From NCBI GenBank assembly GCA_000004695.1, contig CM000150.2:4672001-4736000 (forward strand): a DNA stretch of 64,000 nucleotides. Reading direction: 5' to 3'. A program made the translations under genes and the position numbers. The notes under the pieces were generated by a model, which ran no database searches, was not told where the DNA came from, and worked only from the letters and a program-made list of their open reading frames with translations. Source of the stretch: Dictyostelium discoideum. Its lineage: Eukaryota. Below, piece by piece: positions 2,130 through 37,972 of this stretch; within the stretch, counting starts at the first letter, position 1; each line of letters begins with the position of its first letter.

Positions 2130-2714
2130 TTAATAGTTATCAAACTCTTCTATTAAAGAAATAATTTTTGATAAAATTTTATAATTATTAATATTAATAT
2201 TAATATTATTATTATTATAATTATTTTTAATAATTGAATTAATTATGGTTAGTTGATCTTCATCATCTAAAAATAAAAATTGGAATAGTAGATCACCATC
2301 CAACATATTCTTTGAGAAAGATAATTCAGACCTATAGAGTTGATGATCATTATTTAACAATGGTCTAGTATTATTTGATTTTTTTAAAATTTGTTGAATA
2401 TTATTAAGTATACGATATTCCCTTTTACTTAATTTACCAAACACAATTACACTTCCTAATAATGAACAAGTTATAATTTTATTTTTATTTGATAGTGGTG
2501 ATTTTAATTGATATAATTTCATACATGTTTCTTTTAAACTAAATTGTACTACAGGATCAAGAATAACTGGCATAAAATTATTTACAATCGGTGGTACAAT
2601 ATCTTCACCATCTTGTTGCTGTTGTTGTTGTTGTTGTAATGGTAATAATTTATGTTTTTGGTTCAAGTTTAAAATTTTAAAATTACCATACTTATCAACA
2701 GTTGCAATTAAATT

Positions 2715-2745
<31 letters not shown>

Positions 2746-3335
2746 TCAAAAGATAAAAATAAAGCATCTGTTATATATTTTGATTTATCAGAAGCAATTA
2801 CATTGAAAATATCATTTTCATCTTGTTCTTCCATTTCTTCCATTTCTTCATTATTGTTATTATTATTATTATTTATAGTCCAACTATAAATATCAGAACC
2901 ATTTAATTCAGTAGCTAAAAATATTTTATTTGTTGATTGATTAAATTTTGAAATTGTTATTGGATGAGGTGTTAAGATTTGAGAGTTTTGAGTGTCTTCT
3001 AAATTAATTTGTCTACCACTATTGTAATCAATTAATAGATTACCACCAGTTGTAAAAACCATATATTTTTCATTTGAAATTAGTAATACTGATGAGATTT
3101 GATCTGGAATTAATTTGGTTTTTTCTAATGTTAATGAAACATCTTCACTACCACCACTACTACTACTACCACTACCACCATTACCATTTAATTGAACAGA
3201 ATAAAATAAAATTGTACTTTGATTAATAAAATCAGTACCATAAACTATAATTAAATTCTTTTGTGACCAATATTTAATTGAATGTCCAAATTTAATATTT
3301 AAATTATTTTTTGTTGAATAAATTTCTTTATAAAA

Positions 3336-3378
<43 letters not shown>

Positions 3379-5672
3379 GATTCTGAAGCAGAAGTTAATA
3401 ACCAAATATTTGTATCACCTAATACAACGATAATATTATACTTTTCAATGAATAATATTCTATTTGGATTTTGTTTACTTCTACTATTATTATTGTTGTT
3501 ATTATTATTATTTGTGATTGAATTATCAATTTTTCTAATACTAATTCTTTTTGAGAAATCAATTGAAACTAAAGAGAAACCAAGATCAGGATTAATAAAT
3601 ATAAATTCTAATTTTGAACTACCATTTATAATATCAAGTGATGATTGTAATTCTAATTGAATTTGTTGTTCTGATTGTAATTGTAATTGTGGTTGTGGTT
3701 GTGATTGTGATTGTGAGTCACTTGAATTTAAAGATTGAGAATTTGGTATTGAATGAAAAGGTATTCTATTAAATAAAGAAGCACCACTAACCATTTGATC
3801 ATCTTTATAAGAGATTTTAATCATTGTTAAATGATTTTTTATACTTGTTAAATAGTATGGTAAATTAGTTAAAATGATTGCACCATGATTCATCACTGGT
3901 ATAATTGAAATTGGTGAATTTGAAATAGTCTTTGAATATAAATTACTAGAGAATTCAATCACTTTCTTCTTTTGGTGATGATGATGATCATCATCATGAT
4001 CATCATCATGATCATCATCATTATTTAATTTTAAATTAAAATTTAAATCCCATTTTAAAAGTTTACCATCTCTTAAACCACATAATAATTTAAATTTAAT
4101 TTTATTATCATTTTTTGATTGTTGTTGTAATGGTTGTTGATTTAAAATACTTAATAAAATTGAATGTGGTATTGCACTTAATTCAGTTCCAACTTGTTCT
4201 TCTCCTTCTTGTTGTTGATTAATTTTACTTGATGATGATGATGATGATGATAATGAAAATAATAATTTATTTAATTTAAAATCTAATAATATTATATCCA
4301 TTGAATAATTACCAATACAACATGTATTGAATAAATGATCATTATCAAAATCTATTACTTTACTATGATCAAAATGTGGTAATGATATACAAGAGATTTC
4401 ATAATCCAATGATATATCATTGATTGGTGTGAATTTGAAATTTGATGAATCATAATCATTATCTTGAATTGTGAATGATAATAATTTATTTGGTTTTGAA
4501 ATTGAAACTAATAATAGATTATCTCTTGAACATGAGTTAGTGATAACACTACCCTCCATTGTATTCCATCTAATGGTATTCTTTGTAACATTATATTTAC
4601 AATTATATAATATTATTGATTTTGGTGTCACTTGTAAAAATGTACCATTTGAAGTTCTACAACAATAGATTGTTGGTTGATTGGTTAAGAAATTTAAATT
4701 ATCAGGTTCACCACTACCACCACCACCACCACTACCACCACCACCATCAACTTGTGAAATTAAAGTTGACTCAACTAAACCAATTATAATGTATGGATTA
4801 AAACACCAAACATTTGTTGGAATACCATTTAATTTATTATCACCTAGAATATTTGTTGGTATTGAATTTTCAATGACTTTGACAGAACCAAAACTATTTG
4901 AACCACCACAAACACTATAAATCTTTGTTGAAAACTTTTGTTTATGAACATCGAAATCAATTATACCACCATGATTATCAAATGTTTCTATCATTTCCAC
5001 TGATTGATTATTACTTTTAAAATCAAATTTAAATATACCACCATCTGATAAATCACCAAGTATAAAGAAATAATCATCTTTTAAATTTATAATTGATTGA
5101 ATTGGATTAAATTTAAAATCGAATCTTTTTGCAAATTCATTTGATGATGATGATGATGATGAAGAATTACCACCACTACCATTACTAAATTTGATAATTT
5201 CAGAATATTTGAAATTAACATTATAAATTGAACCTCTTTCATTACCAATAATTAAATTAATATTGGATTCTGATGATAAATACCAACTCCAACCAGTAAA
5301 TAATTGATTATTACCTAATACTTTATAACCATCTTCATCATAAACATCATCATCACAAACATCATCATCATCATCATCACCGTCATCATCATGGTCTATA
5401 ATTTGTTCCTTTCCAACATTTACAATTTTTAAAATTTCAAAATTTGAATTTGAAAGTATAATTTGATTTGAATCATTTGAAAATAAAAGGAAATAATGAT
5501 GAAAATTAAAATTTGAAAGTTGATCATCCAATTTATTTGGTAATGTTATTATTTCATAATTAAATGTTGAATTAATTATTGATGATGGTATAATAATCTT
5601 TTCAATTTTATGTGTTGAAAAATTAAATTTATATTTTGTTAAAATCGTTGATATCGTTGTATTTGTATATGC

Positions 5673-5747
<75 letters not shown>

Positions 5748-6038
5748 ATTATTAATATTATAATTATAATTATAATAATTTTTATGATTTTTATCAATTT
5801 TACTAACTACAATTATATATAAATGATCACAAGTTGAATAATATAAATCCTCTTTATCATATGTAAAATTGAATGAATAAACATCACCAATTACATCAAT
5901 TTCAATTTGTTTTGAAATTATTGAAAATGGATCATTAATATCACCGTCATCATTACTATTTACTAAAAATATTGATAATTTCTTTTTTAATGCACATACA
6001 CCTATAACTCTATTACTAAAATAAATAAATTAATATAA

Positions 6039-6070
<32 letters not shown>

Positions 6071-6854
6071 GATTGTAATATATGTATTATACATACCATG
6101 GTGAAATTTGAATTTTTTCACCTAAATATTTAAAACTATAACCTGGTGGTGATATTTTAAAGTGTTGAACAAATAAAAATTGTTTTTTTAAATTTGACCA
6201 TGATAAAACTGATAAATAACCAGAATCTGATGTTAAGATTAAAAAATCTTTTTTTTTAAAATTTTTATCAAAATATTTTAATTCTTCTGCATTTCTTTTA
6301 AGATTATGTTGTGATTGTGATTGTGATTGTAGTTGTGATTGTGATTGTGGTTGTGGTTGTGGTTGTGGTTGTTGGTATGAATTAGTATTATATGAATAAA
6401 ATTGTGATAAATTTTGTGATGATGATGATTGTTGTGAATCTGATAATGAATTTGATTGTTGTTGTTGTTGCTTTTGTTGCTGCTTTTGTTGTTGATTCAA
6501 TTTTAAATAATTTGTAATTGAATTTAAAGGTAATGTTAAAACTTTAATATCTTTTACAATTGAGAATATAGGTTGATGATTAATAGATTCTAATGATTGA
6601 GAAGATGTAAAATATTCTAATATCTCTAAACAGTTATCTTTAATGAAAACCAATTCCCTTTGTTTCAATTCTTCATTATCATTTATTGAATTCCTAAAAT
6701 TACCACCTACACAATGTGTGATTATACTTGGATTTGAAACTGTCTTTGAATAGAAAAAAACATCTTCCACTTCTTCTTCTTCTTCTTCTTCTTCTTCCTC
6801 TTCCTCTTCTTTTCCCATTAAGATTGATGAAAATATATCATAGTCATTTTTCAT
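2130..6854 (-). CDS. DDB1/CPSF160/SF3b130-family beta-propeller protein (MMS1_N + CPSF_A architecture), about 1500 aa. First exon 6854..~6090, intron ~6013-6089, large exon ~6013..2130.
   Basis: The ATG at 6854 starts MKNDYDIFSSIL…VFFYSKTVSNPSIITHCVGGNFRNS…ELVFIKDNCLEILEYF, which matches the N-terminal propeller start of DDB1/CPSF1/SF3B3-type proteins. The C-terminus …ELSFSKNMLDGDLLFQFLFLDDEDQ matches the family's conserved C-terminal motif (DDB1 …IDGDLIESFLDIS…, CPSF1 …VDGELLNRYLYLS…). The track ORF 2130..5531 begins with TTG and is not a real start. The reading frame stays open upstream through the (AAT)n tract to an acceptor near 6013 (ttatag|GTGTATG). The exact donor choice near 6087-6092 (GTATGT vs GTATAA) is unresolved. 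Length suggests a CPSF160 orthologue but DDB1 is not excluded. Confidence 0.65.
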
Positions 6855-7814
6855 CTCGTTTTCTTTTTTTTTTTTTTAAAAGGTTGGTTTTCTATAGTAA
6901 CCCTGTTTTTTTTTTTTTTTAGTTTTTTAGTTTTTTAGTTTTTTAATTAATTAAAAAATGAATTTAAAAAAAAAAAAAAAATAATGACGAAAATGTGAAT
7001 TTAAAAAAAAAAAAAAAATAATTTCAGGGGGAAAATTTTTTTTTTTTATTTTATTTTTATTTTATTTTATTTTTTATTTTTTTTTTTTTTAACAATGATT
7101 TAATTTTTAATATTAATTTAGTATAAAAAAAAGAACACTCCCAAAGATACCCCAATGATATAAAAATATAAATAAAAATGAATGTAATCATTTTTTTTTT
7201 TTTTTTAAAATTTTTATAAATAAGATTTTCTTTTTTTTTTTTTTTTTTTTTTTTTTCATTTCTGAATAAATATATTATTAATTATTTATTAATAAAATTT
7301 TTTTTTATTTTTTTTAATCTAAAAATAAAAATTTAATTTTAGGGCTTTTATTATAATAAAATAATACCCTTTTACCATTTTCTTATTTTGGATATTTCCA
7401 GATTTGGCAATTTTCTTTTAGGTTTTTAGATTTTACTTAAAATAGTAAAAATTTCTTTTTTCTTTATTTCAAATAATTTAAAATTGAAAAATGGTCGAGT
7501 ATAAATAGAGTAAACTTTGAAAAAAAAAAAAAAAAAAAAATAATCATTCAAGCAAATATAAAAAAAAAAAAAAGTAAATCTAACTCTAACAATTAAAAAG
7601 AATTAGATAAAAAGTTGATTGTTTGTTTAAAATAAAATAAAAAAAATGGTAAAGCAATAAAAAAAAAAAAATAATGAAAAAAAAAAAAAAAAAAAAAAAA
7701 TAATTACCATTTTTATTCTACCTTTAATAGTATTATTTTTTTATTTATAAAGTAGTTTTTTTCCCAAATAAAAAGGGTTTACATTCAGTTATAATCTAAA
7801 TAATAATAATAATT

Positions 7815-7980
7815 TTTGAATCAATACCAATCAAATGATAGAGAAAGGAAAGATTTATCTATGCACTTTATCATAAAAAAAAGGTTGATGATCATCATAT
7901 AAATATTTTATTTCTAAAGTAATAAAATGAATCAATACTAATCAAATGTCAGAGAAAGGAAGGATTTATCTATGCACTGA
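7815..7980 (+). repeat. Two ~48-bp direct repeats (caatac[c/t]aatcaaatg[a/t][t/c]agagaaagga[a/g]ag[a/g]atttatctatgcact) ~65 bp apart in an intergenic region
   Basis: The copies are 7820-7868 and 7932-7978 at about 90% identity. They are non-AT-rich relative to the flanks. Confidence 0.7.
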
Positions 7981-8230
7981 GGCATTTTGAAAAGATGATA
8001 TCATTTATAAAAGAAAAAAAAAAAAATTATAAAACAAAAAATTAAAAATAAAATAAAAAAAAAAAGGTTTAAAAAAAATAAATATATATTTATTTTAATT
8101 AATATAAAATAAACTATTTCCTTTTATTCTATTATTAATAAAAAATTCAAATTATACAAATGATTTGTTATTATCATTTTCATAAAATTAAAACTGATCA
8201 ACAATTGTAAGTTGGTCCCTACCATTTTAT

Positions 8231-8274
<44 letters not shown>

Positions 8275-8331
8275 TTGATTGTGGTGATAATATTATTTAA
8301 ATTAAATTATTTATTAGATTTAAATTGATTA

Positions 8332-10412
<2,081 letters not shown>

Positions 10413-10428
10413 TTCTATAATTATTATA

Positions 10429-10463
<35 letters not shown>

Positions 10464-10680
10464 CTATATTATTGTAACTTTAATATATAAAAATATAAAA
10501 TAAATATAATTTGTGTAAATTGTGGAAATTAAAGAAATGAAAAAAAAAAAAAATAATAAAAAAAATTGAAAAAAAAAAAAAGTGAAAACTTGAAAAAAAA
10601 AAAAAAATTAAATAAATTAATTTTTTTGTATTTCTATATTTAGATTCATAGGATTCTGAGATAAGATGGGTGTCAAGATA

Positions 10681-10686
<6 letters not shown>

Positions 10687-10725
<39 letters not shown>

Positions 10726-11415
10726 TGAATTTTTCCAGATATCCAGAAAACTATTTTTATTTTTTTCTTGAAATAAACTGAAATTGTTTTCAAGTTGTAT
10801 TGGTTTCTTATTAAAAACTAATATTACAGAAGATTCTAATCTAAATGTTTTGAAAAATTTTTCATCTGGATTTGTAAAACAATGTGTGTGAGAAATTGGA
10901 GGTTTGGTGATTGATAATGTACCAAAATGATTTGAGATTTTGAATTTGAATTCTGTAATGAAGGTATTGATAAGATCATAAGTTACTTTTTCATTTTCAT
11001 ACATATTTTATGAGAATGTGGTTGTTCCTTCTTTACCATCATCTGATATCTTGATATTTAAATTTGAAGCAGATACAAAAGGAGAAAACAGAAAAACATA
11101 TTTTTGATCAGGGGATACCAATTCTTGAAAACTAAATGACTGACATTCTGGATGTTCCATTGGATAACCAAAATACCCACCACCACCACCATCATCATCA
11201 CTTATTTTTTGTTTTTTATATGGATTAATTTGATTATAATTATTGAATAGTTCACCAGAATAATTATAATTGGAAATGGTTTTTCCTACCTCTTTTACTT
11301 TATCTTTTTCATTTTTTGAATTCACATGTGAAGATAATATTGGTGTGGTGGTGGTGGTGGTAGTGGGATAGTTTGTAAGTTGTGTAAAGTTGTTAATTGA
11401 TTGATTAACTGCCAT
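10687..11415 (-). CDS. Conserved-looking gene of unknown function, interrupted by a single in-frame TAA (11008-11010); possible pseudogene or sequence error.
   Basis: ORF 11008..11415 (MAVNQSINNF…GGGGGYFGYPMEHPECQSFSFQELV…GTTTFS*) and ORF 10687..11004 (MYENEKVTYDLINTFITEFKF…) are in the same frame, separated only by TAA plus one codon. Codon usage is coding-like on both sides. Confidence 0.4.
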
Positions 11416-12535
11416 AGTCTTGTTTATTTTAAAAATGTTAGCTATAATATTTCCCTTTTTCCAGTTACTTGAATTCTTTGAATATTATTCAAAGTAACTG
11501 GATCTTTGAATTATATATAGTATTCCCTATTGGGTATTTCATATTAAATTAATTTAGTTGTATCATTGTTTATTATGGCACCTAATTTTGAAAGTGTGTT
11601 GTATATTATTAGTTTATCTTCTTTACTAATTTCATTTAAAAATATAATTTTAATTGATTTTGAATCTGACCAAGGAACAATTTCAAAATTTATAGATGTA
11701 AAAGCATATTCCCAAAAATAACTGAATATGACTTTTCATCAATTGACTCTTTAACTGCATATTCATTAGAAGTTGTATCAAATATTTCTTTTCCTTTTCC
11801 TTTTCTTTTTCTTAATATTACTACATTTTAAATTAATTTATTTATATATTATTTTATTTTATTTTTTATTTATTATTTTTTTTTTATTTTACATCTTTAT
11901 TTTTTTTATTTTTAAATATTAATTTCAAAAAAAAAAAATATGTATATTAAATTCAAACCATCTGCGTGAGTTGTAATAGTTTGTTAGGGGTTAAATTTGC
12001 CTAAAGATGAATTTTTGTAAGTAAAAAAAAAAATTTTTTTGTAAAAAAAAATGAAAAAAAATGTTAAATGTTATCCAAATCAAATGAAAAAAAAACTTTT
12101 AAATGCCAGAATGATAAGATTTTCAAAGATGAATTGATTCTACCTAAAAAAATAATAAAAAATTAATTTTACTTTTTATAGATATTTTTTATTCTTATAA
12201 AAAAGTTGTTTAAATAAATTTATTTGTGTAATTATTATTTTCAATTGAATTTTTATTTAATTTTTATATTATTTTTAAAAGAAATAAAAATGATAATAAA
12301 AAAAAAAAAATTAATATTATATTCGAATTTTCAAAAAAAAAAAAAAAAGGAAAATAAGAAAATAATAATATATAATGTTGTGAAAATATTTTAATAAATA
12401 TTATAATAAAATAAAGTTTAGATTCCTAAATGTCTATTAAAAATAGTAAAACAATAATAATTATTTATTGAACATAAATAAATATGAAATTTGTTTTTTT
12501 TTTTTTTTTTTTTTTTGATTTTGATTTTTTTTTTT

Positions 12536-13855
12536 TTACATATATAAACCTTCTGGAGCACCAGCTGTTTTTCTGTATAAAACTTTTTCTTTTGCTTTTT
12601 TAAAATCAGTATGAGTTACTCTCATTCTACGTTCTCTGAGTGCTAAAAGACCAGATTCAGTACAGATGGCTTTGATATCAGCACCGGATAAATCATCTTT
12701 AGACATAACAAACTCTTCAAGGTTAACATCTTCAGAGAGATTCATTTTAGCAGTATGAATTTCAAAGATCTTTCTCTTGGTCTTAATATCTGGAAGAGGG
12801 AATTCAATTTTACGATCGATACGACCTGGACGAATGAGAGCAGGATCTAAAGTTTCAATACGATTTGTAGCCATGATAACTTTTACATCGGTTCTAGCAT
12901 CGAAACCATCCAATTGATTCAAGAGTTCCAACATAGTTCTTTGAATTTCACGTTCACCACCAGATTGAGAATCATAACGTTTGGTACCAACAGCATCGAT
13001 TTCATCAATGAAAACAATTGATGGTGCACATTCATCTGCAACTCTGAATAATTCACGAACTAATTTTGGACCATCACCTAAATACTTTTGAATTAATTCT
13101 GAGCCTACAACACGTAAAAATGTAGCGGATGTTTGATTTGCTACGGCTTTGGCTAATAAAGTCTTACCAGTACCTGGCTCACCATAGAGGATGACACCCT
13201 TTGGTGGTTTGATACCAATCTCCTCATAGAGCTCTGGATGAGTCAATGGCAATTCGATGGCTTCTTTCATCTCTTGAACTTGTGCTTCCAAACCACCGAT
13301 ATCGCTGTAGGATTCGGTTGGTGCCTTTTCAACCTTCATTACGTTCACCATTGGGTCGACTTCACCATCGATTACACCAACCACAGAGAGGGTCTTGTTA
13401 TTTAATAAAACAGTTGCGCCTAGGTAAAGTTTTGATTTATCTACAAATGACATGATACGGACATAATGCTCTGGTCCTACGGTTGATGACACGATGGCGT
13501 GATTATCATCGATAATCTCCTCCAAATTACCAACTGTCAATGGATCACCACGGAGTTCCTCAATGATTTTCTCATCGGCTTGTTCTTTGCTATTTTCATC
13601 AACCTTTGGTTGATTGAGATCATAGTTTTGTAAAAATTCTTGTTCCATTAATAAATAATCTTTAATACGTTCAAGTTTCAATTGTTTTAATTTACATTTT
13701 GAATGTGGTGTAATAACTGGTAATTTAGTTGATGTCTCTGCTCCTCTTCTCTTTTTCTTTTTACCAAATTGTGTTGGTGGTGGTGGTGGTTGATACTTTG
13801 GCTGATCTTTTTTTTCACCTTTATCACCTTGGCCTTGTGATTGATTATTACCCAT
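12536..13855 (-). CDS. psmC1: 26S proteasome regulatory ATPase subunit 4 (Rpt2/PSMC1), 439 aa, single exon
   Basis: The N-terminus is [10 protein letters not shown] (myristoylation-type MG). The Walker A motif GEPGTGKT, the Walker B motif IVFIDEIDA and the run [22 protein letters not shown] are present, as is the C-terminal …[11 protein letters not shown]. It aligns end to end with human PSMC1. Confidence 0.95.
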
Positions 13856-18481: not shown

Positions 18482-19199
18482 TAATAATAAAAAATATTAA
18501 AAAAAAATTAAATAGGAGAATTGATAAAATTGTAGTTGATGAATCATGGAATAAATTAAAAGATATTGGATGCTCAGAAGGATTAGTATCAATTGGATAT
18601 GAAAGAAAATATCAAGAATATAGTAGAATTTATCAATATATAAAGATTTATTTATTTGCATGTTCATCAGCAGTATTTGATTGTCCAATGTCAATGACTG
18701 ATGGTGCAGCACGTTTAATTGAATTGTATGGTGATAAAGGAATGAAGGAGGATGAATATAAACATGAAGGTCAATGGATGACAGAGAAAACTGGTGGATC
18801 TGATGTTTCAAAATCTGAGACCATTGCTGTTAGCAGTGGTAGTGGTGATGGTAAAACATGCAATCTTAGTGGTTACAAGTTATGAATGGCGATATGGAAT
18901 ACGCAGAATCTAATTCACGTAGATTCGCTTATTTAATGGCTCAAACTTATATGGCATCGCTTTTATTAGAACATGCAGTTTGGTCAAAGGATGAATTGGA
19001 TGCTCAGGTCGCTGAAAGATGGTGTTTTGTTAAACTTGAAAATGGAAAAACTAATAAAAACTCTACAATTTCATTCACTGATGTTGATGAAAAATGGAGA
19101 GAATTAGACATTAAATTAGCTTTGGATTTAAATGAACATGGTCAACCAAAATTAGGTACCTATGATATTAATTCAACAAAATTAAGATCAAAATATTAA
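18187..19199 (+). pseudogene. Decayed copy of the AidB-like acyl-CoA dehydrogenase gene
   Basis: Exon 1 has a 34-bp deletion relative to 21545-21578, so it reads MTQNIKEKNTHNHHYQ* and stops. The same GTAAGT intron is present. Exon 2 has a 33-bp in-frame deletion at 18767. An ~905-bp internal deletion is flanked by (c)aagt microhomology (18868-18872 vs 22268-22272 and 23172-23176). The 3' end and 3' flank are near-identical to copy B. Confidence 0.85.
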
Positions 19200-19261
19200 T
19201 AAAACAATAAAATGTTGTATAAAGAAATTAAAAAAAAAAAAAAAAGATCCTTTTTAAATAA

Positions 19262-19295
<34 letters not shown>

Positions 19296-19304
19296 TATTT
19301 TTTT

Positions 19305-19592
19305 TTTATAAAAACTTTTGTTTAATAAACTTTATTATTAAATATTTAAGTATTTAATTTGATTAAATTTAATCATGAGTAATTTAATTTTACTCTTATA
19401 GTTTAAATTTTAATTTCTCTTGTTAGTTTTGAAGACCATGGGCACCAGAAGCAACTATCGAATTATTTATTTTTTATATATTTTTATTTTTTTTATTTTT
19501 TATTTTAAAAAAAAAAATTAGTAAATTAATCGAATTGTATTTTTCAAAATTTTATTTAATTAAATACATACCCTGGGAGGAAAGCTATTATT

Positions 19593-19600
<8 letters not shown>
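19305..19600 (+). repeat. Conserved ~270-bp element, copy 1 (in unit A)
   Basis: The sequence ctttattattaaatatttaagtatttaatttgattaaatttaatcatgagtaatttaatt…gttttgaagaccatgggcaccagaagcaactatcgaatta…aaatacataccctgggaggaaagctatt is about 90% identical to 23640..23910 and 43975..44232. Confidence 0.8.
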
Positions 19601-19658
<58 letters not shown>

Positions 19659-20188
19659 TATTAGTTTTAAATAAAAAGTTTAAATTTTATATGTTATAAT
19701 ACTCACCACCACAGGCCTCATCAAGGTGATCTTCTACATAAATAGTTGAAGCATCACAAACTTCAATAGCCATGGAAAAAAATGTGATTGTATCTGGGTC
19801 AAGAATAAAGGAATACTCTATAAGTGATGAAATGAAATTAATAAAATAATTATAAAATAATAATTAAAAGTCAATAGAATATTTACTTGGATTATAGCTT
19901 TCAGGTCTCTTTCTAATTCTACCCATTACATGAACTTCATTGGTTTCCTCTATTTTAAAAATTAAATAAAAATATTGTTAACAATATGAATGTTTTTTTG
20001 TTAAAAATAATATAAAACTTACTTCCAGACAAAATATCTCTGGCTTTTTTAATTTTTTCTGAATCTGTTAATTTGAAAATAAAATCATTATGGTCACCAT
20101 GGGTTTTTAAACCAAAATAGGCTGTTTCAGATTGTACCAATACTGAAAATATTAAAAGAAGAGATAATAAAACAAATAATAATTTCAT
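19556..20188 (-). CDS. Small secreted protein, paralog A (~122 aa). Model: complement(join(19556..19584,19707..19817,19887..19949,20023..20188)).
   Basis: Exon 1 reads [55 protein letters not shown] (signal peptide plus mature start) and ends at GTAAGT. Exon 2 reads [20 protein letters not shown] and ends at GTAAAT. Exon 3 reads …[37 protein letters not shown] and ends at GTGAGT. The short last exon (AFLPGYVFN*) lies inside the 270-bp conserved repeat; the alternative acceptor cccag|GG gives GYVFN*. All phases are 1. Confidence 0.65.
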
Positions 20189-20486
20189 TTTTTAATTGAG
20201 TTTTTAATTTGTTGTTTATAATTGAATTTGAATTTTAATTTGATAATGAAATAATTTAATTTTCAATTGTTTAAATACTTTTGGAAAAAAAAGAATAATA
20301 ATAATAATTATAATTAATATTAATTATTAATTAAAAAAAAAAAAAAAATAATAATATTAATTATTATTATTAATAAAAAATAATTTCCAAACTTCTAGGA
20401 TGATAAAAACGTAAAATAATTTTAACCCACACTTGCGAGATAATTACTCCAAAACTTGTAATTTTATCCAATTGGGTGTGTTATTA

Positions 20487-21840: not shown

Positions 21841-23492
21841 TAATAATAAAAAATATTAAAAAAAAATTAAATAGGAGAATTGATAAAATTGTAGTTGATG
21901 AATCATGGAATAAATTAAAAGATATTGGATGTTCAGAAGGATTAGTATCAATTGGATATGAAAGAAAATATCAAGAATATAGTAGAATTTATCAATATAT
22001 AAAGATTTATTTATTTGCATGTTCATCAGCAGTATTTGATTGTCCAATGTCAATGACTGATGGTGCAGCACGTTTAATTGAATTGTATGGTGATAAAGGA
22101 ATGAAGGAGGATGAATATAAACATTTCATATCACGTGATCCAAAGACATTTTGGACAAGTGGTCAATGGATGACAGAGAAAACTGGTGGATCTGATGTTT
22201 CAAAATCTGAGACCATTGCAGTTAGCAGTGGTAGTGGTGATGGTAAAACATGCAATCTTAGTGGTTACAAGTATTTCACATCAGCAACTACCTCAGAGGG
22301 TGCAATGGTATTGGCAAGAGATGTTGACGATGCAAAAACCATGAAAGGTGCAGTTGAGGGATCCAGAGGTTTATCAGTTTACTTTATAAAATTAAGAAAA
22401 CCAAATGGTGAACTCGATCGTATTCAAGTTCACAAGTTAAAGAATAAATTTGGAACAAAAGCAGTACCAACCGCAGAACTTGAGTTAATGGGTACACCAG
22501 CAGTTAGAGTTGGACCAAAAGGTAGAGGTGTACCAGTGATTGCCTCCATATTAAATATCACTAGAATTCATAATGTAATCCATTCAGCAGCCACAATGAG
22601 AAGATGTGTTGCAATTGTAAGAGATTTCGCTCATCGTCGTACTGTATTTGGTAAATTATTAAAAGATAACTTATTATATCTTTCAACATTGGCAGAGATG
22701 GAATTAGAATTTAGAGCTAGTTTACATTTACTTTTGGATGTTACCTTATTGTTGGGTAAGAGTGAACGTATTGTTGAAAAACAATCATCAAATAGTGAAG
22801 AACAAAAACAAATTGACCTCCTATTACGTATTGTTACACCACTTTCAAAATTGTATACTGCAAAACAAAGTGTTACAGTCGCATCAGAGGCTATTGAAGC
22901 ATTGGGTGGCACTGGTTATATGGAAGATTCCGATATGCCACGTCTATTTAGAGACACTCAAGTAACATCGATTTGGGAAGGTACAACCAACGTTTTATCA
23001 ATGGATATTTGGAGAACCTTAAAAGAACCATTAACAATTAAATTCTATTTCCAATCAATTGAAAATCGTTTAATTCAAGCAAATAAATTATTAAATAATG
23101 ATAACAATATTCAAAAAGTTATTTCAGTAATTAGAGAAGCAATGAAAACTATTCGTTCAGTTATTGATAAAGTTATGAATGGTGATATGGAATACGCAGA
23201 ATCTAATTCACGTAGATTCGCTTATTTAATGGCACAAACTTATATGGCATCGCTTTTATTAGAACATGCAGTTTGGTCAAAGGATGAATTGGATGCTCAG
23301 GTCGCTGAAAGATGGTGTTTTGTTAAACTTGAAAATGGAAAAACTAATAAAAACTCTACAATTTCATTCACTGATGTTGATGAAAAATGGAGAGAATTAG
23401 ACATTAAATTAGCTTTGGATTTAAATGAACATGGTCAACCAAAATTAGGTACCTATGATATTAATTCAACAAAATTAAGATCAAAATATTAA
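21514..23492 (+). CDS. Acyl-CoA dehydrogenase family protein, AidB-like; join(21514..21782,21875..23492), 628 aa
   Basis: Exon 1 reads MAQNIKEKNTQTGYSGREYFQQQSPLLGNQYIED…IQYDAWGK, with donor GTAAGT at 21783 and acceptor aaatag at 21874 (phase 2). Exon 2 carries …WTSGQWMTEKTGGSDVS… (the AidB-type GMTEK.GGSDV motif), …ELMGTPAVRVG…, …ALGGTGYMEDSDMPRLFRDTQVTSIWEGTTNV… (the ACAD C-terminal helical domain), and a C-terminal extension. The track ORF 21469..21786 starts at a non-ATG codon. Confidence 0.8.
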
Positions 23493-23555
23493 TAAAACAA
23501 TAAAATGTTGTATAAAGAAATTAAAAAAAAAAAAAAAAAGATCCTTTTTAAATAA

Positions 23556-23616
<61 letters not shown>

Positions 23617-23639
23617 TATTTTTTTTTTATAAAAACTTT

Positions 23640-23905
23640 TGTTTAATAAACTTTATTATTAAATATTTAAGTATTTAATTTGATTAAATTTAATCATGAG
23701 TAATTTAATTTTACTCTTATAGTTTAAACTTTAATTTCTCTTGTTAATTTTGAAGACCATGGGCACCAGAAGCAACTATCGAATTATTTATTTTTTATAT
23801 ATTTTTATTTTTTATTTTAAAAAAAAAAAATTAGTAAATTAATCGAATTGTATTTTTCAAAATTTTATTTAATTAAATACATACCCTGGGAGGAAAGCTA
23901 TTATT

Positions 23906-23910
<5 letters not shown>
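23640..23910 (+). repeat. Conserved ~270-bp element, copy 2 (in unit B)
   Basis: Collinear with 19305..19600. Confidence 0.8.
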
Positions 23911-24004
<94 letters not shown>

Positions 24005-24533
24005 TATTAGTTTTTAATAAAAAGTTTAAATTTTATATGTTATAATACTCACCACCACAGGCCTCATCAAGGTGATCTTCTACATAAATAGTTGAAGCAT
24101 CACAAACTTCAATAGCCATGGCAAAAAATGTGATTGTATCTGGGTCAAGAATAAAGGAAAACTCTATAAGTGATGAAATGAAATTAATAAATAATTATAA
24201 AATAATAATTAAAAGTCAATAGAATATTTACTTGGATTATAGCTTTCAGGTCTCTTTTTAATTCTACCCATTACATGAACTTCATTGCTTTCCTCTATTT
24301 TAAAAATTAAATAAAAATATTGTTAACAATATGAATGTTTTTTTGTTAAAAATAATATATAACTTACTTCCAGACAAAATATCTCTGGCCATTTGAATTT
24401 TTTTGGAATCTGTTAATTTGAAAATAAAATCATTATGGTCACCATGGGTTTTTAAACCAAAATAGGCTGTTTCAGATTGTACCAATACTGAAAATATTAA
24501 AAGAAGAGATAATAAAACAAATAACAATTTCAT
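23870..24533 (-). CDS. Small secreted protein, paralog B (duplicate of A within unit B)
   Basis: Exon 1 reads [55 protein letters not shown]; it differs from A at 3 residues. The exon structure is the same as A by collinearity. Coordinates are approximate. Confidence 0.6.
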
Positions 24534-24975
24534 TTTTTAATGGAGTTTTTAATTTGTTGTTTATAATTGAATTTTAATTTTAATTTGATAATGAAATAAT
24601 TTTATTTTCAATTGTTTAAATACTTTTGGAAAAAAAAATAATAATAATAATTATAATTAATATTAATTATTAATTAAAAAAAAAAAAAAAAATAATAATA
24701 TTAATTATTATTATTAATAAAAAAAATATTTTCCAAATTGCTAGGATGATAAAAACGTAAAATAATTTTAACCCACACTTGCGAGATAATTACTCCAAAA
24801 CTTGTAATTTTATCCAATTGGATGTGTTATTATTTTTATTATTATTATTATTATTATTAATAAAAAAAATAATTTCCAAACTGTTGGGATGATAAAAACC
24901 TAAAATAATTTTAACCCACACTTACGAGATAATTACTCCAAAACTTGTAATTTTATCCAATTGGGTGTGTTATTA

Positions 24976-30819: not shown

Positions 30820-31720
30820 ATTTTTTTTTTTTTTTAAAAATCTTTTTTTATTGTATAATTATTTTTTTTTTTTGAAAAAAAAAAAAAAAAAAAAAGAAAA
30901 CTTGGTTAAATAAATACATATTGAACAAACATATAAATGAATCTATTTAGTGCTTGATTTTAATATATTCTAGTTTTAAAAATTTTTTTTTTTTATTTTA
31001 GATAGGGTAATCATAAAAGGTTTTAAAATTTTTTTTTTTTTTCTACAGATATTAATTAATTATTTGTGAGATCTAGAGCAATAGTAAATGTTTTTTTTTT
31101 TTTTTTAATTTATAACACTAAATAATTAGATAATAAAATTAAAATTAGGATTTAAAAAGGCTATTATTATTTTTTTTTTTATCATTATTTTTGATACCCA
31201 GTTTTAAATATTGTATCTAGAATTTTATAAATTTATCAAACAATAAAACTTTCTTTAAATGAATTGATTGAAGGAGACTATTATCAGAATCACTTGACTT
31301 GAAAAATATAAACTTTGCAAGTTACTTTTCTTAGTTATTTGTTTTAGGAAATGGTTTGAATATTTAAAACTTATTAGAACTTTTGGATTAATTTTAAATT
31401 TTTTTTTTTTTTTCTATTTTTTATACTAAAATCCTTTAAACTATCTAAATTAACATACAACTCATACATAGAAAGTTTTAATGATGAAATTGATCAAATT
31501 TAACAATTGGTTGAATGATTTCAATACCAAATAGTAAGAAACTTAAAGAGGTTTCAAGATAAATATAAGCCAACGAAAAAAGGATCAATATCATATGAAA
31601 AAAGGAGTGGAATACCTAGAGCATTGACCAGAGACAAAACGCTCAAAACTCTAGATAATAAACCAATTCATATACCAACAAAAATCTGGAAAATCAATTG
31701 AAGAATAACATGGATTTCTT

Positions 31721-31761
<41 letters not shown>

Positions 31762-31858
31762 TGGATTAACAAGATTGATATATGTCTATCTGTGTTAATA
31801 CGAGTTTTATTTAATATTTATTTAAAGGCTTATCATTTAAGCTGAAGGGTTATTTTAA

Positions 31859-34800
31859 TCATATGAATTGATCAAAAGATATAATATTTGGGAGAGATGA
31901 TTCTGGAATACAATAGTAATTAGCTGTTTTTTTTCTTAGCTTGATCGTTGAAGTGAGAAGGATCTTAGGATCTTTGAAGTTATTATGGTCTTTTGCTGAT
32001 AAGTTTTTCAGATCTTTTGCTTTTTTGATGTATTCTAGAGTGGCCAATTTGTGCCATTTCTTTAGAAGGGAGCTGTATGATAGTGATTCATCTGTTAAAG
32101 GATCTTCACTGTATATTTGATTGCAAATCCAAATCCAAATGTTGTGGAGGATAAGGGCCATTAGGTTTCTATATGCGAATGATCTGGTTAGATCATATTC
32201 TATTGCTTTATAGTTCCATTCAAAGTATTCTTTGTGGAATCTGTCGTTGGCGTAATCTGCATTCACTTCTTGATCTTTTTTGGCTGTCGGTGATAATTTT
32301 GGAGTTATTCTATTAATGAAATTGTTATTTTGCCTAATTCTTGTATGGTGCCAGTTTTTACCTTTGCCTGTGGTAATATAGATGAAATTTTTGAGTTTAT
32401 TTATTTTTATGAATTGTTTTGTTTTCTTGCATGAGAAGAACAGGTGACCGTATGGGTCTTTGCTCATATCTTCTTTGCAGAGTGGGCATTGTTTGTTGTG
32501 AAGGTAGTTTATTGGAAGGCATCTGGCATGGAATCTAAACATTGTGTCTCTTGTTTTAGGGTCTTTTATCTTCAGTATGTTGTTGAAGAGTTGATTATAG
32601 CTGTAGCCTCTTAAGTTTAGAGATGATTGGAATTCCGTTTTAGGGATGGTTGGATTTTGGTCTTGAATTGTGGTATACCATTCTGCCAGTGAAAGTGGTC
32701 GTCCATTTTCGTTTTTTATGGATGTGAGATTATTGTTGAAGATTGCTTTTTTTATTCTTATTTTGTTCCATTCGTCTAAGTTTTCTTTTAGGTATCTGGA
32801 TGTGAATTTGTTTTTTTGAATCTGATATTCCCAGCTTTTGTGATGAGATGAGTTTGTTTGTTTGGTTTCTAGTGCTAGGATGAACTGGTTTATGATCCAA
32901 AGTTTCTGCGCCAGTTGTCTCAATTCTATATTCCAAATGTTCCAGCCCCCTACTTTTAGTGGGTATCTTGCTCTTTTGGTTCTCATTAAATTAATAACTT
33001 GAAATCCACTAGCATTTTTGTTGTTTGGTGCCGATAAAAACCATTCGACTAATTAATTGATTTGGTTTAATTCCTCTTCCTTAAAGTTCTCTACATATGA
33101 ATAGTAGGTTAATTTAGAGAGTGCGAATGCTTTGAGGATGTTGGTTTTGGTTTTGATTGTTGAGTCAGTGGTTTTCCATAGTACTAAGGATGATCTTATT
33201 GTGTTTAATATTTCTGGCATTTTTCTTGTTATCCCTTTACCTGTGAAGAAGTATCCCAAGTATCTTTCTGGATTTGTAGATATTGGAATTCTTTGGTTGG
33301 TATTGTCTGGGTTGCCTATAAGAATTGATGAAGATTTGTCCATGTTAAGTTTTGAGGAAGTGGCTTTGCAAAATGAATTGAAGTGTTGTAGTACTAATTC
33401 AAGTTGTTGAGAGTCTGGGACCATTGAAGCCGAGTCGTCTGCAAAGCTTTGGAATTTCTCTCTGTGGTTGCTGTTGTTTAGAGGAAGGCCAGTAATTCGG
33501 TCATCTTGTAAAATTTTTCTAGCTAAAGCCTCTATTACAAGGACGAACAGGGTGGGTGATAGTGGATCTCCTTGTTTAACTCCTCTTTTGATCTCAAAGG
33601 GTATAGTAGTTCTACCATTAATTTCAATTCTTGCTTCAGATTTGGTGAGTAGATTCATTATCAGGTTGATTATATTGGTTGGAATGTTGATGTGTTGTAG
33701 TGATCTAAGTATTGAACCGTGTGAGATCGAGTCAAAAGCTTTTTCGAAATCATATAGTGTAATTATTCCGTTAATTCTTTTATCATTACAATAGTTGATT
33801 AATTCGTTCATTGATATGATATTATCTAGAATGAATCTGCCTGGTACGAAACCTTTTTGATTGTGGTTGATCACTTTCGTTAGTATTGGGATTATTCTAT
33901 TGTTTATTAGCTTTGAGTGGATTTTATATATACAGTTAGCCAGTGTAATTGGTCTTCTGTTTTTGATTAGTTCGGGGTCTCCCTTTTTAGGTATCGTGAT
34001 AATGAGGCCTTCTTTGTAATTTTTGCTAATTAGATGAGGATTTCTTAGAGTGTCGTTGAATGCTGAGGCCAGTATTGGAGCTAGTTTTTCTTTGTGTGTT
34101 ATGTAGAATAAGTTTGGAATTCCATCTGGACCTGGAGATTTGTGTGGGTTCAGTTGTTTTATTACTTCTAGGATCTCTTGTGAGGTGAATTCATTTTCAA
34201 GGTTGTCCCATGTTGAGTCCCTGGTCACTGTCCAATTTTCCAACATTTCGTAATGAGATGGTGGGTCATCTTCTTTGTAGTCATAAAGATTTGAGTAATA
34301 TTTTACGTATTCTTCTTCGATCAATTCCTGTTTGTTGATTGTTCTACCTTGTGCATCTTTTACTGCGTTGATGGTGAAATCATTGTGTCTTTTCTTGATT
34401 CTCGCGGAGATGTACTTGAGTGAGGTTTCTTCGCAATAGTTGTTCAATTCTTGTTTAAGTTGTTCTTCTCTTTTTTTAGATTCATTTATTGCTGAAAGGG
34501 TTGCGAAGGCTTGGTCTTTAAATTCTGTCTCTAGTAGGGAGATTAGATTTTTGATGTTTGCCTTATTGTTGTAGTCGTTTTGTTTTTGAAATTCGGTGTA
34601 TAGTTGTTTTATTTTGTTCAGTAAGCTGTTGAGTTGAGAGAAGGAAATAGAGTTATGGTTGGCTGACAGCTCCCTTGAATAATCGTTAAGTAGGAAGTCT
34701 ATTTTCTTAAGCATTATGCTTGAGAGGATTGAGGATTTTTTTAATCTCCATCTGCGCTTGTTCATCTGTATGTTGGGTAGAGTGAAAGTGGTTGATAGGA

Positions 34801-35458
34801 AGTTGTGATCTGATAGAGGTATGTCGTTAATTTTTGGGGGGATTAGGTTCCTTAGGTATAATTGGCTGTAGTTGATTAAGCTATTGTTAAGGTATATTCT
34901 GTCTAGTCTCCTTTCCAAGATTCTTGTGAGGTTATTGTTTGTGTTGTGTATCGTTCTTGAGAAGGTGGGTCTTTTATTTAGTTGGTCCATATCCATTAGG
35001 TTATTTGAAATTCTGATGGCTTCGATTACTGTGGCCATCTCATCTGGGGATTGTGTTGTCAAGTTGCCTTGGTCATCATTTGATGTGTGATTGTCATTGA
35101 AGTCTAAACAGTTGAAGTCTCCTGCTATGATGTCGATGTTTTTATTAGGGTTAGACGTTAGGTTGTGGTATTGGTTGTTGAAGTGTTTGTTTAGTGTTGA
35201 AGCTAGTGTTTTTCTTTTATCAGGTTGGGCCGGGGTGTATATGGCCAAGATTCTCGTTGTGGTATCTTTTATTAGAATGTCTGATATTATTAGTCTACCT
35301 TCTATTATGAATATTGGTGAGAGTTTTATGTTTTGGTTGTTGTGGTTTAGTATTCCTATTCCGTTGCCTCTGTTGGTTGCACTAATGATGGAGCCAGGAA
35401 ATAGCTGGTGTGCTTGTGTTGCGTCAGCATTGAGTTCATTGACTATGGTTAGTGCCAA
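31859..35458 (-). CDS. Retrotransposon ORF2 (APE endonuclease - RT - Zn knuckle), split over two frames (33053..35458 and 31859..32986)
   Basis: See the mobile_element entry. The frame change near 32987-33052 indicates a frameshift in this copy, or a natural frameshift site. An intact copy is needed for comparison. Confidence 0.7.
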
Positions 35459-35907
35459 TGAGTTTGGGGGGGATTGGGATTTGATAAAGTCTGTTTTGTT
35501 TTTGAAGGAGGTGTCAGTGCCCCAACCTCTGACATTCCATTGGTTGATTTTGATTACTACTATTATGAGATGATATCGATCTCCTCTTGGGAGTCGTATA
35601 GCTGCGGTTTGGATGGTGAAGGGTAGATACTCTCTATGAAGCTCTCAATGATTCCTTTACTTTCTTTTTTGACAGGTGTCTTAGGGGTGGATGGGATGTA
35701 AGGGTTGCTTCTGTTTATTGTTGGTGAGAGTTGGGTGACTTCATTGTTTGAGTGGATTTCCTCGTTCTTGCGTTTATGTGATGGAGGGATGTTTAGTGTC
35801 TTCTCTCTGTTTTCCGAGGATGAATGGATGTTATTGCTCGTTTTGTTGGCATTGTCTTTTTGGATGGCGTTGGATGTTGTGGTAGTGGTTGTGGTGGGTT
35901 TAACAGA

Positions 35908-36813
35908 TTAAGATTCTGCTGGGTTTTTGGGGGGAAGAGGTTGAGATGACTTTTTTGCTTGGGCTTTTTTCTCTTGTGTTGATTGTTTTTCAGACTGATT
36001 GTTTGCTGGGTTGTTTGTTTGTTGTTGTGGTTTTGGTTGAGAGGATTTGATTGCTATCCTGTTTTGGGTGTTAGGAGGATCTGTCATCTCATCTTCTAAT
36101 GGTTCCTCCGTGTTGTTTGTCTCTACTTTCTTGTTTTTCTTTTGTGAGGAGTAGGTTTTGGTGGCCGTTCTGATGGTAAAGTTTGCGATTTCTGTAATGT
36201 GTTGGCCAGATTTCATTTGATCGCCTATTTTGCATTCTATTAGACCGAATACTATGAGGTGGTCGGTGGAGTATATAGTATTGTATATTGCATAGGGTAT
36301 TTCTTCTGCAAAGGCAGTTTTGATGAGGGCGTCCACTATTCCTGCCTTTTCTCTGGGAATTCTTACTCTTCCTGTGAGGACGTGGAAGTCTCTACTGGAG
36401 GTGATGAAGGTTCCCAATTTGCTTCTATCTCTAATGATATTTAGGAGAGATTGTTCGTTTTTAATCATCAGGTGGATCATTTTTCTAGTTCCTTTGCCTA
36501 TGTATATCTTGTCGAATGGGATATCGTAGTTTGAGAGTGTTTTTCTCATTTCTTCTAACCCCTTGAGATCCATTTTGGGGAATTCGAGTGTAATTGGGTA
36601 GAATCCGTTGTTCTTCTCATAGGTTGAGAGCGCAGTCATGTTCAATATGGTCTCGCAGTATTTGGAGATGTCTTTGAGGCCTATTGATAGTTTGGGGTAG
36701 GTCTCCTTTATCTCTGCTGTTTTTGTGGAGAATTCCTTAATGAAGTTCTCCGATGCCTCGTCCATATGGGTGGAGGGGTTGGCCATTTTAGCCGCGTCTG
36801 CGTAGGAATTCAT
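35908..36813 (-). CDS. Retrotransposon ORF1 protein (301 aa)
   Basis: The ORF reads MNSYADAAKMANPSTHMDEASENF… and ends in a basic/Q-rich C-terminus. It lies immediately inside the element 5' end. Confidence 0.7.
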   Translation of the reverse strand: MNSYADAAKMANPSTHMDEASENFIKEFSTKTAEIKETYPKLSIGLKDISKYCETILNMTALSTYEKNNGFYPITLEFPKMDLKGLEEMRKTLSNYDIPFDKIYIGKGTRKMIHLMIKNEQSLLNIIRDRSKLGTFITSSRDFHVLTGRVRIPREKAGIVDALIKTAFAEEIPYAIYNTIYSTDHLIVFGLIECKIGDQMKSGQHITEIANFTIRTATKTYSSQKKNKKVETNNTEEPLEDEMTDPPNTQNRIAIKSSQPKPQQQTNNPANNQSEKQSTQEKKAQAKKSSQPLPPKNPAES

Positions 36814-37020
36814 CTCGATGGGATTCCTTTGAATCGGCGATTTGGTATGTTAGATCTGTAGATCGTGGGATTGGTGATTTTTTTTGAAAAATTGGTTAAA
36901 ATTGACCGAGATTAAAGATAGAAAAGGATGAATTACTTTTCACGTGTATCTTGTATCCTCTTGATCGCGGTACGGTTTTTTTTTACATGGATTTCTTAAT
37001 ATTTTTAAACCATTAAAGGT

Positions 37021-37031
37021 TTCGAACCTGC
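37021..37031 (-). promoter_or_regulatory. External B box (exB) downstream of tRNA gene
   Basis: On the tRNA strand, GGTTCGAAACC lies about 21-31 nt past the tRNA 3' end. This is a second B-box-like element, as typically found downstream of Dictyostelium tRNA genes. Confidence 0.6.
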
Positions 37032-37051
37032 GATCCTTCTTTTCATTTAAA

Positions 37052-37123
37052 AGGCTCCAATGAGGATCGAACTCATGACCTCTTCCTTACTAGGGAAGCG
37101 CAATACCACTATGCTATGGAGCC
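37052..37123 (-). tRNA. tRNA-Thr (anticodon AGU)
   Basis: The reverse complement reads GGCTCCATAGCATAGTGGTATTGCGCTTCCCTAGTAAGGAAGAGGTCATGAGTTCGATCCTCATTGGAGCCT. The 7-bp acceptor stem is GGCTCCA/TGGAGCC. The A box is TAGCATAGTGG. The anticodon stem is CTTCC/GGAAG with loop CTAGTAA (U33, anticodon AGT, A37). The T arm is ATGAG-TTCGATC-CTCAT. A T-run follows on the coding strand as terminator. Confidence 0.9.
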
Positions 37124-37163
37124 ATTTCTGAAATTATAATATTTAATGAAAGATCCAGTCCGT

Positions 37164-37167
<4 letters not shown>

Positions 37168-37208
<41 letters not shown>

Positions 37209-37375
37209 CATTAAGTATCAAATCAAAGCAACGGCCAGAAGAACAAAATAAATTAGACTCACTAATCTCGCTAAAGCTATTACAATTTAGCAGACAATGG
37301 AACTCACCTCTTCACGCAATAGAACTTCCTAAACATCTCAAAAAATACAATAATTCACTCAGTACTTTCTATAAA
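37168..37375 (-). mobile_element. Putative 5'-truncated retroelement remnant (TRE5-type position) upstream of tRNA-Thr
   Basis: On the tRNA strand, a non-AT-rich segment (…gcgtgaagaggtgagttccattgtctgctaaattgtaatagctttagcgagattagtgagtct…) ends in a ~35-nt oligo(A) (37168..37202). The oligo(A) finishes about 45 bp upstream of the tRNA 5' end, which is the characteristic TRE5 insertion distance. The element is only ~200 bp long. Confidence 0.4.
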
Positions 37376-37378
37376 TAA

Positions 37379-37429
<51 letters not shown>

Positions 37430-37739
37430 AAAAAAAAAAAAAACTGTGGGACCCCAGTTTATTCAGAAATTTTCCGAATTTTAATCTTTTTAAGAAAAAT
37501 TTTAAAAATTTGAAGAAAATTAAATGGAAATTCACAACAACACCACAATTTTTAAGCAACACAAATGCCTACAAAAAATAAGCGAAATTGTGGATAAAAC
37601 TCAATTAAAAAAAAAACAATTCAAATACGTCATAAACATCAATCACGAACCAGACGATAAAATAAAAAAAGATTTAGAAAAAAGTTTGGACAAAAAAGAT
37701 GTTTTAATCAAAAGTAATAATACAATTCAAAATTCGAAA

Positions 37740-37789
<50 letters not shown>

Positions 37790-37908
37790 TAAACCAACCC
37801 CTCTTTTAGAGACCCTGTAAAAAAAAAAAAAAAATAAAATAAAATGAGATCTAACATCTCAAGGAGAAGCAAATAATAATTGCGTTATCCAATTCAAAAA
37901 AAAAAAAA

Positions 37909-37972
37909 GTCCGTAATTTTTTATTAAAGACTTTTCTTGGATAATGCAATTTAAAAAATTACGGACTTTTTT
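37909..37972. repeat. Perfect 13-bp inverted repeat hairpin (gtccgtaattttt …35 nt… aaaaattacggac)
   Basis: The sequence reads agtccgtaattttttattaaagacttttcttggataatgcaatttaaaaaattacggact. The same motif ccagtccgtaatttttt also occurs at 37160-37176, directly abutting the oligo(A) of the putative TRE5 remnant. Confidence 0.8.

Follow-up and report, generated by a model that had tools for sequence, protein, structure and literature searches.

Two classes of retrotransposons without long terminal repeats (non-LTR retrotransposons) in Dictyostelium discoideum, TRE3 and TRE5, target tRNA genes, and each follows its own position rule. TRE3 elements insert 40-150 bp downstream of tRNA genes, with a wider range of 14-228 bp for TRE3-A, the most abundant subfamily (PMC5911963, PMC5006619), and they share the transcriptional direction of the tRNA gene (PMC5911963). 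TRE5-A inserts about 48 bp (range 37-90 bp) upstream of tRNA genes (PMC5006619) with its 5' end turned towards that of the tRNA (PMC3159450), and experiments with this element have shown that the B box is required and that the protein of its first open reading frame (ORF1) binds TFIIIB (PMC5911963, PMC5006619). At least one TRE is present at 61% of the tRNA genes of D. discoideum, and a TRE3 together with a TRE5 at 13% (PMC5006619). Here, we analysed a 64-kb stretch of D. discoideum DNA (contig CM000150.2, positions 4,672,001 to 4,736,000; hereafter the window), in which a tRNA-Thr(AGU) gene has very probably been hit independently by both classes, with TRE3-A on its downstream side and TRE5-A on its upstream side. 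The DNA itself shows the ends and tails of the two elements, their duplications, their orientations and distances, and their inactivating mutations.

ARAGORN called a single tRNA gene over the whole window, tRNA-Thr (anticodon AGT in DNA), at 37052-37123 on the minus strand, and Rfam RF00005 recovered the same gene (66.4 bits, E 3e-13), in agreement with the original prediction of a tRNA-Thr(AGU) gene in this region. Its internal B box, GAGTTCGATCC, occupies tRNA positions 50-60 (37074-37064, minus strand). The external B box that had also been predicted is present on the minus strand at 37029-37019 as GGTTCGAAACC, separated from the tRNA 3' end by 23 nt, and it fits the B-box consensus, GGTTCGANNCC. 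External B boxes (ex B) have been described (PMC5911963).

Downstream of the tRNA gene, and like it on the minus strand, lies a full-length TRE3-A-type non-LTR retrotransposon of 5261 bp (31724-36984), whose ends were defined by alignment to copies at another locus (L001). It comprises a 5' untranslated region (UTR; 36814-36984), ORF1 (35563-36813, with its ATG at 36813 and 416 codons in intact copies), ORF2 (31859-35644, in the -1 frame relative to ORF1, overlapping it by 79 bp and closed by a stop codon at 31861-31859), a 3' UTR of 102 bp (31757-31858) and an A33 tail (31724-31756), all on the minus strand. The island of 35-40% G+C at 32-37 kb stands out from a window of about 22% G+C. The 16-bp sequence acatggatttcttaat directly abuts the element on both sides, at 36985-37000 next to the 5' end (the tRNA-proximal copy) and at 31708-31723 next to the poly(A) tail (the distal copy). 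This perfect direct repeat occurs exactly twice in the window, where nearly all other exact 16-mer pairs come from a gene duplication at 18.5-24.6 kb. Because both copies adjoin element ends that were defined independently, by alignment to other copies, they represent a genuine target-site duplication, as had been proposed, and the A33 tail and the duplication together give this copy the hallmarks of a non-LTR insertion. From the tRNA 3' end (37052) to the element 5' end (36984), which does face the tRNA, the gap measures 67 bp (about 68 bp had been estimated) and falls inside the published TRE3-A range.

The coding regions identify the element further and reveal how it was disabled. ORF2 shows the APE-RT-zinc finger order expected for TRE3: the apurinic/apyrimidinic endonuclease (APE) domain at 34805-35539, the reverse transcriptase (RT) domain at 33251-33994 (Pfam RVT_1, E 1.3e-34) and the CX2CX10HX4C zinc knuckle near the C-terminus at 32429-32488, all on the minus strand. 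The endonuclease call relies on a Pfam Exo_endo_phos alignment that spans the whole profile at E 0.0019, below the curated threshold, and on the catalytic motifs WNVRG, GDFN, RLDRIY and SDH visible in the sequence. ORF2 runs in one frame from 35644 to 31862 and is broken by a single in-frame TAA at 33053-33055, an AAA>TAA change (A>T) at codon 864 relative to an intact copy; an intact relative reads NQINKLVEWF across this site. ORF1 is likewise cut at codon 302 of 416 by a CAA>TAA change at 35908-35910, as compared with the intact 416-aa ORF1 at L001:8226-9476. A base-by-base comparison with the intact copy at L001:8053-13308 revealed no insertion or deletion in the coding sequence, and the only difference of this kind from the L001 copies that we recorded is a 2-bp deletion in the 5' UTR. 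The original prediction was therefore right that the copy is inactivated, but not that ORF2 is split across two frames by a frameshift: the sole change of frame is the -1 offset between ORF1 and ORF2, which is the norm for TRE3-A and TRE5-A (PMC5911963). Whereas the nonsense codons are observed, the loss of autonomy is deduced from them: with one stop in each ORF, the copy cannot make its own proteins and cannot be autonomous. The two stops and the two duplications recur in an independently assembled version of the locus that shows 99.3-99.8% identity and other homopolymer lengths. The reference genome contains 13 intact TRE3-A copies (PMC5006619), and the two nonsense codons and the 2-bp deletion place the window copy outside this group.

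The position, orientation, ORF layout and length of the large element (5228 bp without its tail) show that it is a TRE3-class long interspersed nuclear element in canonical position and orientation, as had been predicted. It is 99.1% identical over 5256 bp to L001:8053-13308 and 98.2% identical to L001:2758-8011, and a D. discoideum protein matches its ORF2 protein at 100% identity. The protein clusters to which its products belong have 79 members for ORF2 and 37 members for ORF1, from D. discoideum and D. citrinum. Related copies obey the same geometry: the first of two full-length tandem copies at L001 begins 61 bp downstream of a same-strand tRNA gene, and a 5'-truncated TRE3-A copy at L011 lies 106 bp downstream of a tRNA-Ile on the same strand; a copy inside a transposon cluster (L014) has no tRNA gene in reach. 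In the window, some 90 bp separate the insertion from the beginning of the internal B box, and the spacing is about equal at the L001 copy, whose tRNA gene has no external B box. Hence the external B box need not have been the guide, and these two loci suggest that the internal box may have been the reference point. The proposal of a B-box-guided TRE3 geometry thus stands as regards the class of element and the presence of an external box, but that box is not necessarily what guided the insertion.

On the other side of the tRNA gene we found a TRE5 remnant, as had been suggested, and specifically one of TRE5-A. With the extra T residues at its 5' junction, it spans 37172-37908 on the plus strand, and it continues well past 37380, where it had been thought to end. 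Between 37204 and 37378, only one of the six frames is open; it lies on the plus strand and encodes 57 codons of the ORF2 C-terminus followed by a stop just ahead of an A-run, so marking the point of 5' truncation. Behind it come an internal A-rich stretch (37381-37443), a B-module of about 297 bp with the ORF1 start codon at 37524 (37444-37740, 91% identical to L012:6158-6498), an internal A47 run (37741-37787), a C-module (the 3'-terminal 108 bp of TRE5-A) with terminal hairpins (37788-37895, 92.9% identical to L012:8191-8282) and an A13 oligo(A) tail (37896-37908), all on the plus strand. The 14-bp target-site duplication gtccgtaatttttt flanks the remnant, with the tRNA-proximal copy at 37158-37171 and the distal copy at 37909-37922. 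As the proximal copy ends at 37171 and the tRNA 5' end is at 37123, the insertion lies exactly 48 bp upstream of the tRNA gene, the canonical TRE5-A position, and with the remnant on the plus strand and the tRNA on the minus strand their 5' ends face each other in the canonical orientation.

Homology to other loci supports each part of this structure. Over its full length, the remnant peptide matches the C-terminus of an ORF2 at L001 (E 7e-6) that is 5'-truncated and sits about 45 bp upstream of a tRNA-Thr, and it has relatives of 75-89% identity in several Dictyostelium assemblies. At the DNA level, the ORF2 end shares 94.7% identity with L011:6326-6458 and 85% with L010:6052-6209, two remnants that lie on the strand opposite to the adjacent tRNA gene and whose duplications end 49 and 44 bp from their tRNAs, respectively. 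The whole of 37205-37908 aligns to L010, so the homology runs past the A-run. The same ORF2-end sequence precedes the BC-module in a TRE5-A.2-like element at L012, where the equivalent of the B-module precedes and contains the ATG of a 444-aa ORF1 and is repeated 3' of a deleted ORF2; in TRE5-A, the B-module is 290 bp long and is duplicated into the 3' UTR (PMC3159450). The match to the L012 3' end covers 37810-37907. The last 54 nt of the C-module are predicted to form stems (minimum free energy -11.3 kcal/mol, z -3.0), and the C-module nucleotides that have been mutated in TRE5-A.1, namely T15, C26, A35 and C38 from the 3' end (PMC3159450), are all present within the predicted stems. A self-BLAST of the upstream segment against the window returned no second copy, and the segment was identified only through other D. 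discoideum loci; it shows no similarity to the 3' end of the TRE3-A copy.

Three other assignments of these elements have to be weighed. The upstream segment had been read on the minus strand, as the 3' remnant of a TRE5 whose oligo(A) tail pointed at the tRNA and stopped about 45 bp short of it. What speaks for this is that a homopolymer does exist where some 35 A's were reported: a T38 run on the plus strand (37166-37203) begins 42 bp upstream of the tRNA, near the canonical -48. This run is no tail, however, as the real tail is at 37896-37908, and we rejected the minus-strand reading: all three minus frames of 37205-37371 are riddled with stops, the homologues without exception match the plus strand, which also carries the one open frame, the B-module, the C-module, the A13 tail and their own duplication, and the published TRE5-A orientation has the 5' end towards the tRNA (PMC3159450). 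This version has virtually no chance of being correct. It is extremely improbable, too, that the remnant belongs to TRE5-C, which also ends in a C-module that folds alike and is 78% identical to that of TRE5-A over the 3'-terminal 87 bp compared (PMC3159450), because a 3' B-module is missing from TRE5-B and TRE5-C (PMC3159450), whereas the remnant has one of about 297 bp together with all four nucleotides named for TRE5-A.1; on these sequence grounds we assign it to TRE5-A. As for the large element, the database names of its relatives are uninformative, which leaves some room for TRE3-B, -C or -D. This is very unlikely, since the consensus lengths are 5279 bp for TRE3-B, 4734 bp for TRE3-C and 1559 bp (partial) for TRE3-D, as against 5229 bp for TRE3-A (PMC5006619 Table 1) and 5228 bp here (2 bp longer in the L001 relatives), the element sits in the most populous ORF2 cluster, in line with the most abundant subfamily, and a distinct sister family (P0005/L013) exists at 58% amino acid and 67% nucleotide identity. 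The large element is therefore most probably TRE3-A, the letter being given by its length, its abundance and its distinctness from that sister family.

Two features of the locus are less tidy, the left flank of the TRE3-A insertion and the 5' junction of the TRE5-A remnant. At 31427-31680 on the plus strand lies a decayed TRE3-like fragment corresponding to about aa 840-920 of ORF2, which translates, with stops and frameshifts, as LSKLTYNSYIESF...QLVE*F...; it is 66.5% identical by blastn to window positions 33122-32880 and 69.4% identical to L013 (E 2e-16), and a tblastn match to it has E 3e-6. The suggestion that the left flank is an older nested element is supported in that it is older and derived from a retroelement, to which we add that the fragment is inverted relative to the tRNA, as it is to the TRE3-A copy, and has no 3' end of its own. 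The fragment is outside the TRE3-A duplications and was thus part of the TRE3-A target, old DNA that pre-existed the insertion. Twin priming in mammalian L1 yields a layout in which the 5' part is inverted. The fragment and an A16-ended stretch (31398-31440, minus strand) might accordingly be the halves of one ancient TRE3 insertion with a 5' inversion, given that the fragment, on the tRNA-proximal side, runs antisense to the canonical TRE3 direction and is followed on the minus strand by about 25 nt and then A16 (31398-31413). We consider this unlikely, because the roughly 25 nt ahead of A16 do not resemble the 3' end of TRE3-A, a flanking duplication was not detected, the two parts would lack about 1.2 kb between them, and A16 runs are common in a genome of 22% G+C. 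The T38 run at the TRE5-A junction, in turn, consists of the T6 of the target-site duplication and 32 extra T residues (37172-37203). It is T31 in the independent assembly, and its length is thus unstable. The extra T's were either added at integration or arose by later slippage, and they could reflect stuttering of the RT or a template switch at the target's T6 end. It is unlikely that the extra-T junction and the inverted fragment are footprints of atypical target-primed reverse transcription (TPRT) by TREs; we found neither described for this family in the TRE literature searched.

Several points weigh against the interpretation of the locus as a double hit by TRE3-A and TRE5-A. An empty-site allele, sought through the neighbouring single-exon gene, was not found, and the sole other long assembly has both insertions. 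The subfamily letter of the large element derives from length, copy number and the separation from the 58%-identical sister family; no database name says 'TRE', and the members of the ORF clusters are all named 'hypothetical protein'. The Exo_endo_phos match remains below its threshold, and a PDB sequence search for the endonuclease with the ORF2 N-terminus returned only spurious interferon-gamma matches. A simple model of integration does not explain the 32 extra T's, nor does it explain why the old fragment is inverted and lacks a 3' end; a search for a target-site duplication around this fragment gave none convincing, and ARAGORN called no second tRNA gene in the window that could explain its orientation.

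With the double-hit interpretation, the history of the locus can be outlined from the TPRT model and the published TRE5-A experiments. For both elements, with the RNA polymerase III transcription complex bound to the tRNA gene, a nick near that gene would have been followed by poly(A) priming and by a second-strand nick 14-16 bp away. In the case of TRE3-A, the target already held the older decayed ORF2 fragment downstream of the tRNA; the plus strand would have been nicked after ...CTTAAT, cDNA synthesis on the poly(A) tail would have started from the 3'-OH, and another nick at a distance of 16 bp would have given the 16-bp duplication. Since then, ORF1 and ORF2 have each acquired a nonsense codon. 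The TRE5-A RNA would have integrated head-to-head with the tRNA, 48 bp upstream, a position that published experiments attribute to the TFIIIB/TFIIIC-bound tRNA gene. Reverse transcription probably aborted early, after the tail, the C-module, the B-module and the last 57 codons of ORF2 had been copied (705 bp), and the T-run at the 5' junction would then have been expanded or added.

Additional observations concern sequence variation and repeats around the two elements. Besides the T-run, other homopolymers differ in length between the window and the independent assembly, namely the TRE3-A tail (A33 at 31724-31756 vs A28) and the two internal A-runs of the TRE5-A remnant (A47 at 37381-37427 vs A21, and A47 at 37741-37787 vs A36); these differences come from true polymorphism by slippage or else from errors of assembly. 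At 37908-37922 and 37952-37966 there is a perfect inverted repeat of 15 bp, agtccgtaatttttt / aaaaaattacggact, with a 29-bp spacer. Its left arm is the right-hand TRE5-A target-site duplication, and before the insertion this hairpin-capable repeat would have been about 35-93 bp upstream of the tRNA. The sequence GTCCGTAA has no further occurrence in the window. Elsewhere in the window, the segments at about 18500-20300 and 21900-24600 are tandem paralogous duplications sharing many exact 16-mers, and they share about 80% identity, in the inverted direction, with the region at about 43900-44900, which carries a gene with a BP74_N domain.

The comparison loci also have features of their own. At L001, positions 2613-13308 contain the two full-length TRE3-A copies in direct tandem downstream of an intron-containing tRNA gene; ataatgcat borders the distal copy at either end, and the proximal copy has no duplication of its own. 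Within L001:13769-15436, the 5'-truncated TRE5-type ORF2 upstream of the tRNA-Thr has its stop abutting the poly(A) and no C-module, which makes it TRE5-B-like by structure. It is followed by three very short TRE5-A tails in tandem that consist of the C-module only, and this tRNA-Thr is thus an example of repeated hits on one tRNA gene. The TRE5-A.2-like element at L012 (5800-8282) is non-autonomous: its A-modules are duplicated, its ORF1 (444 aa) is intact, a large part of ORF2 is deleted and the BC-module is shortened. ARAGORN called no tRNA gene in this 17.6-kb locus.

Given the published occupancy of tRNA genes by TREs, the locus is a typical example; it represents already known biology and adds no new biology. 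Its value is mainly one of annotation, in the exact ends, duplications, orientations and inactivating mutations of the elements, and in a clean example of both position rules, with TRE5-A at -48 bp head-to-head and TRE3-A, in the same orientation as the tRNA gene, about 90 bp downstream of the B box. Compared with TRE3-A (formerly Tdd-3), the large element agrees in its position 67 bp downstream from the tRNA gene in the same orientation, its two ORFs with ORF2 in the -1 frame, the APE-RT-zinc finger order, the poly(A) tail and target-site duplication, a length within 1 bp of the 5229-bp consensus and a high copy number, while it differs by the nonsense codons at ORF1 302 and ORF2 864 and by the 2-bp deletion in the 5' UTR. 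The remnant resembles TRE5-A (formerly DRE; reference TRE5-A.1, GenBank X57034, cited in PMC5006619) in its insertion 48 bp upstream with its 5' end towards that of the tRNA, its 14-bp duplication, its 3' layout of ORF2 end, B-module, C-module and oligo(A), and terminal hairpins with the published nucleotides, whereas its severe 5' truncation (705 of 5647 bp), a 5' junction with 32 extra T's and the long internal A-runs of variable length set it apart. Both elements share with mammalian L1 and its TPRT the APE and RT in ORF2, a poly(A) tail, variable 5' truncation and duplications of 14-16 bp. In contrast, L1 sites are set by a loose TTTT/AA nick consensus, whereas those of TREs are set by the RNA polymerase III complex on tRNA genes, and the TRE ORF1 is unrelated to that of L1 (PMC5006619).

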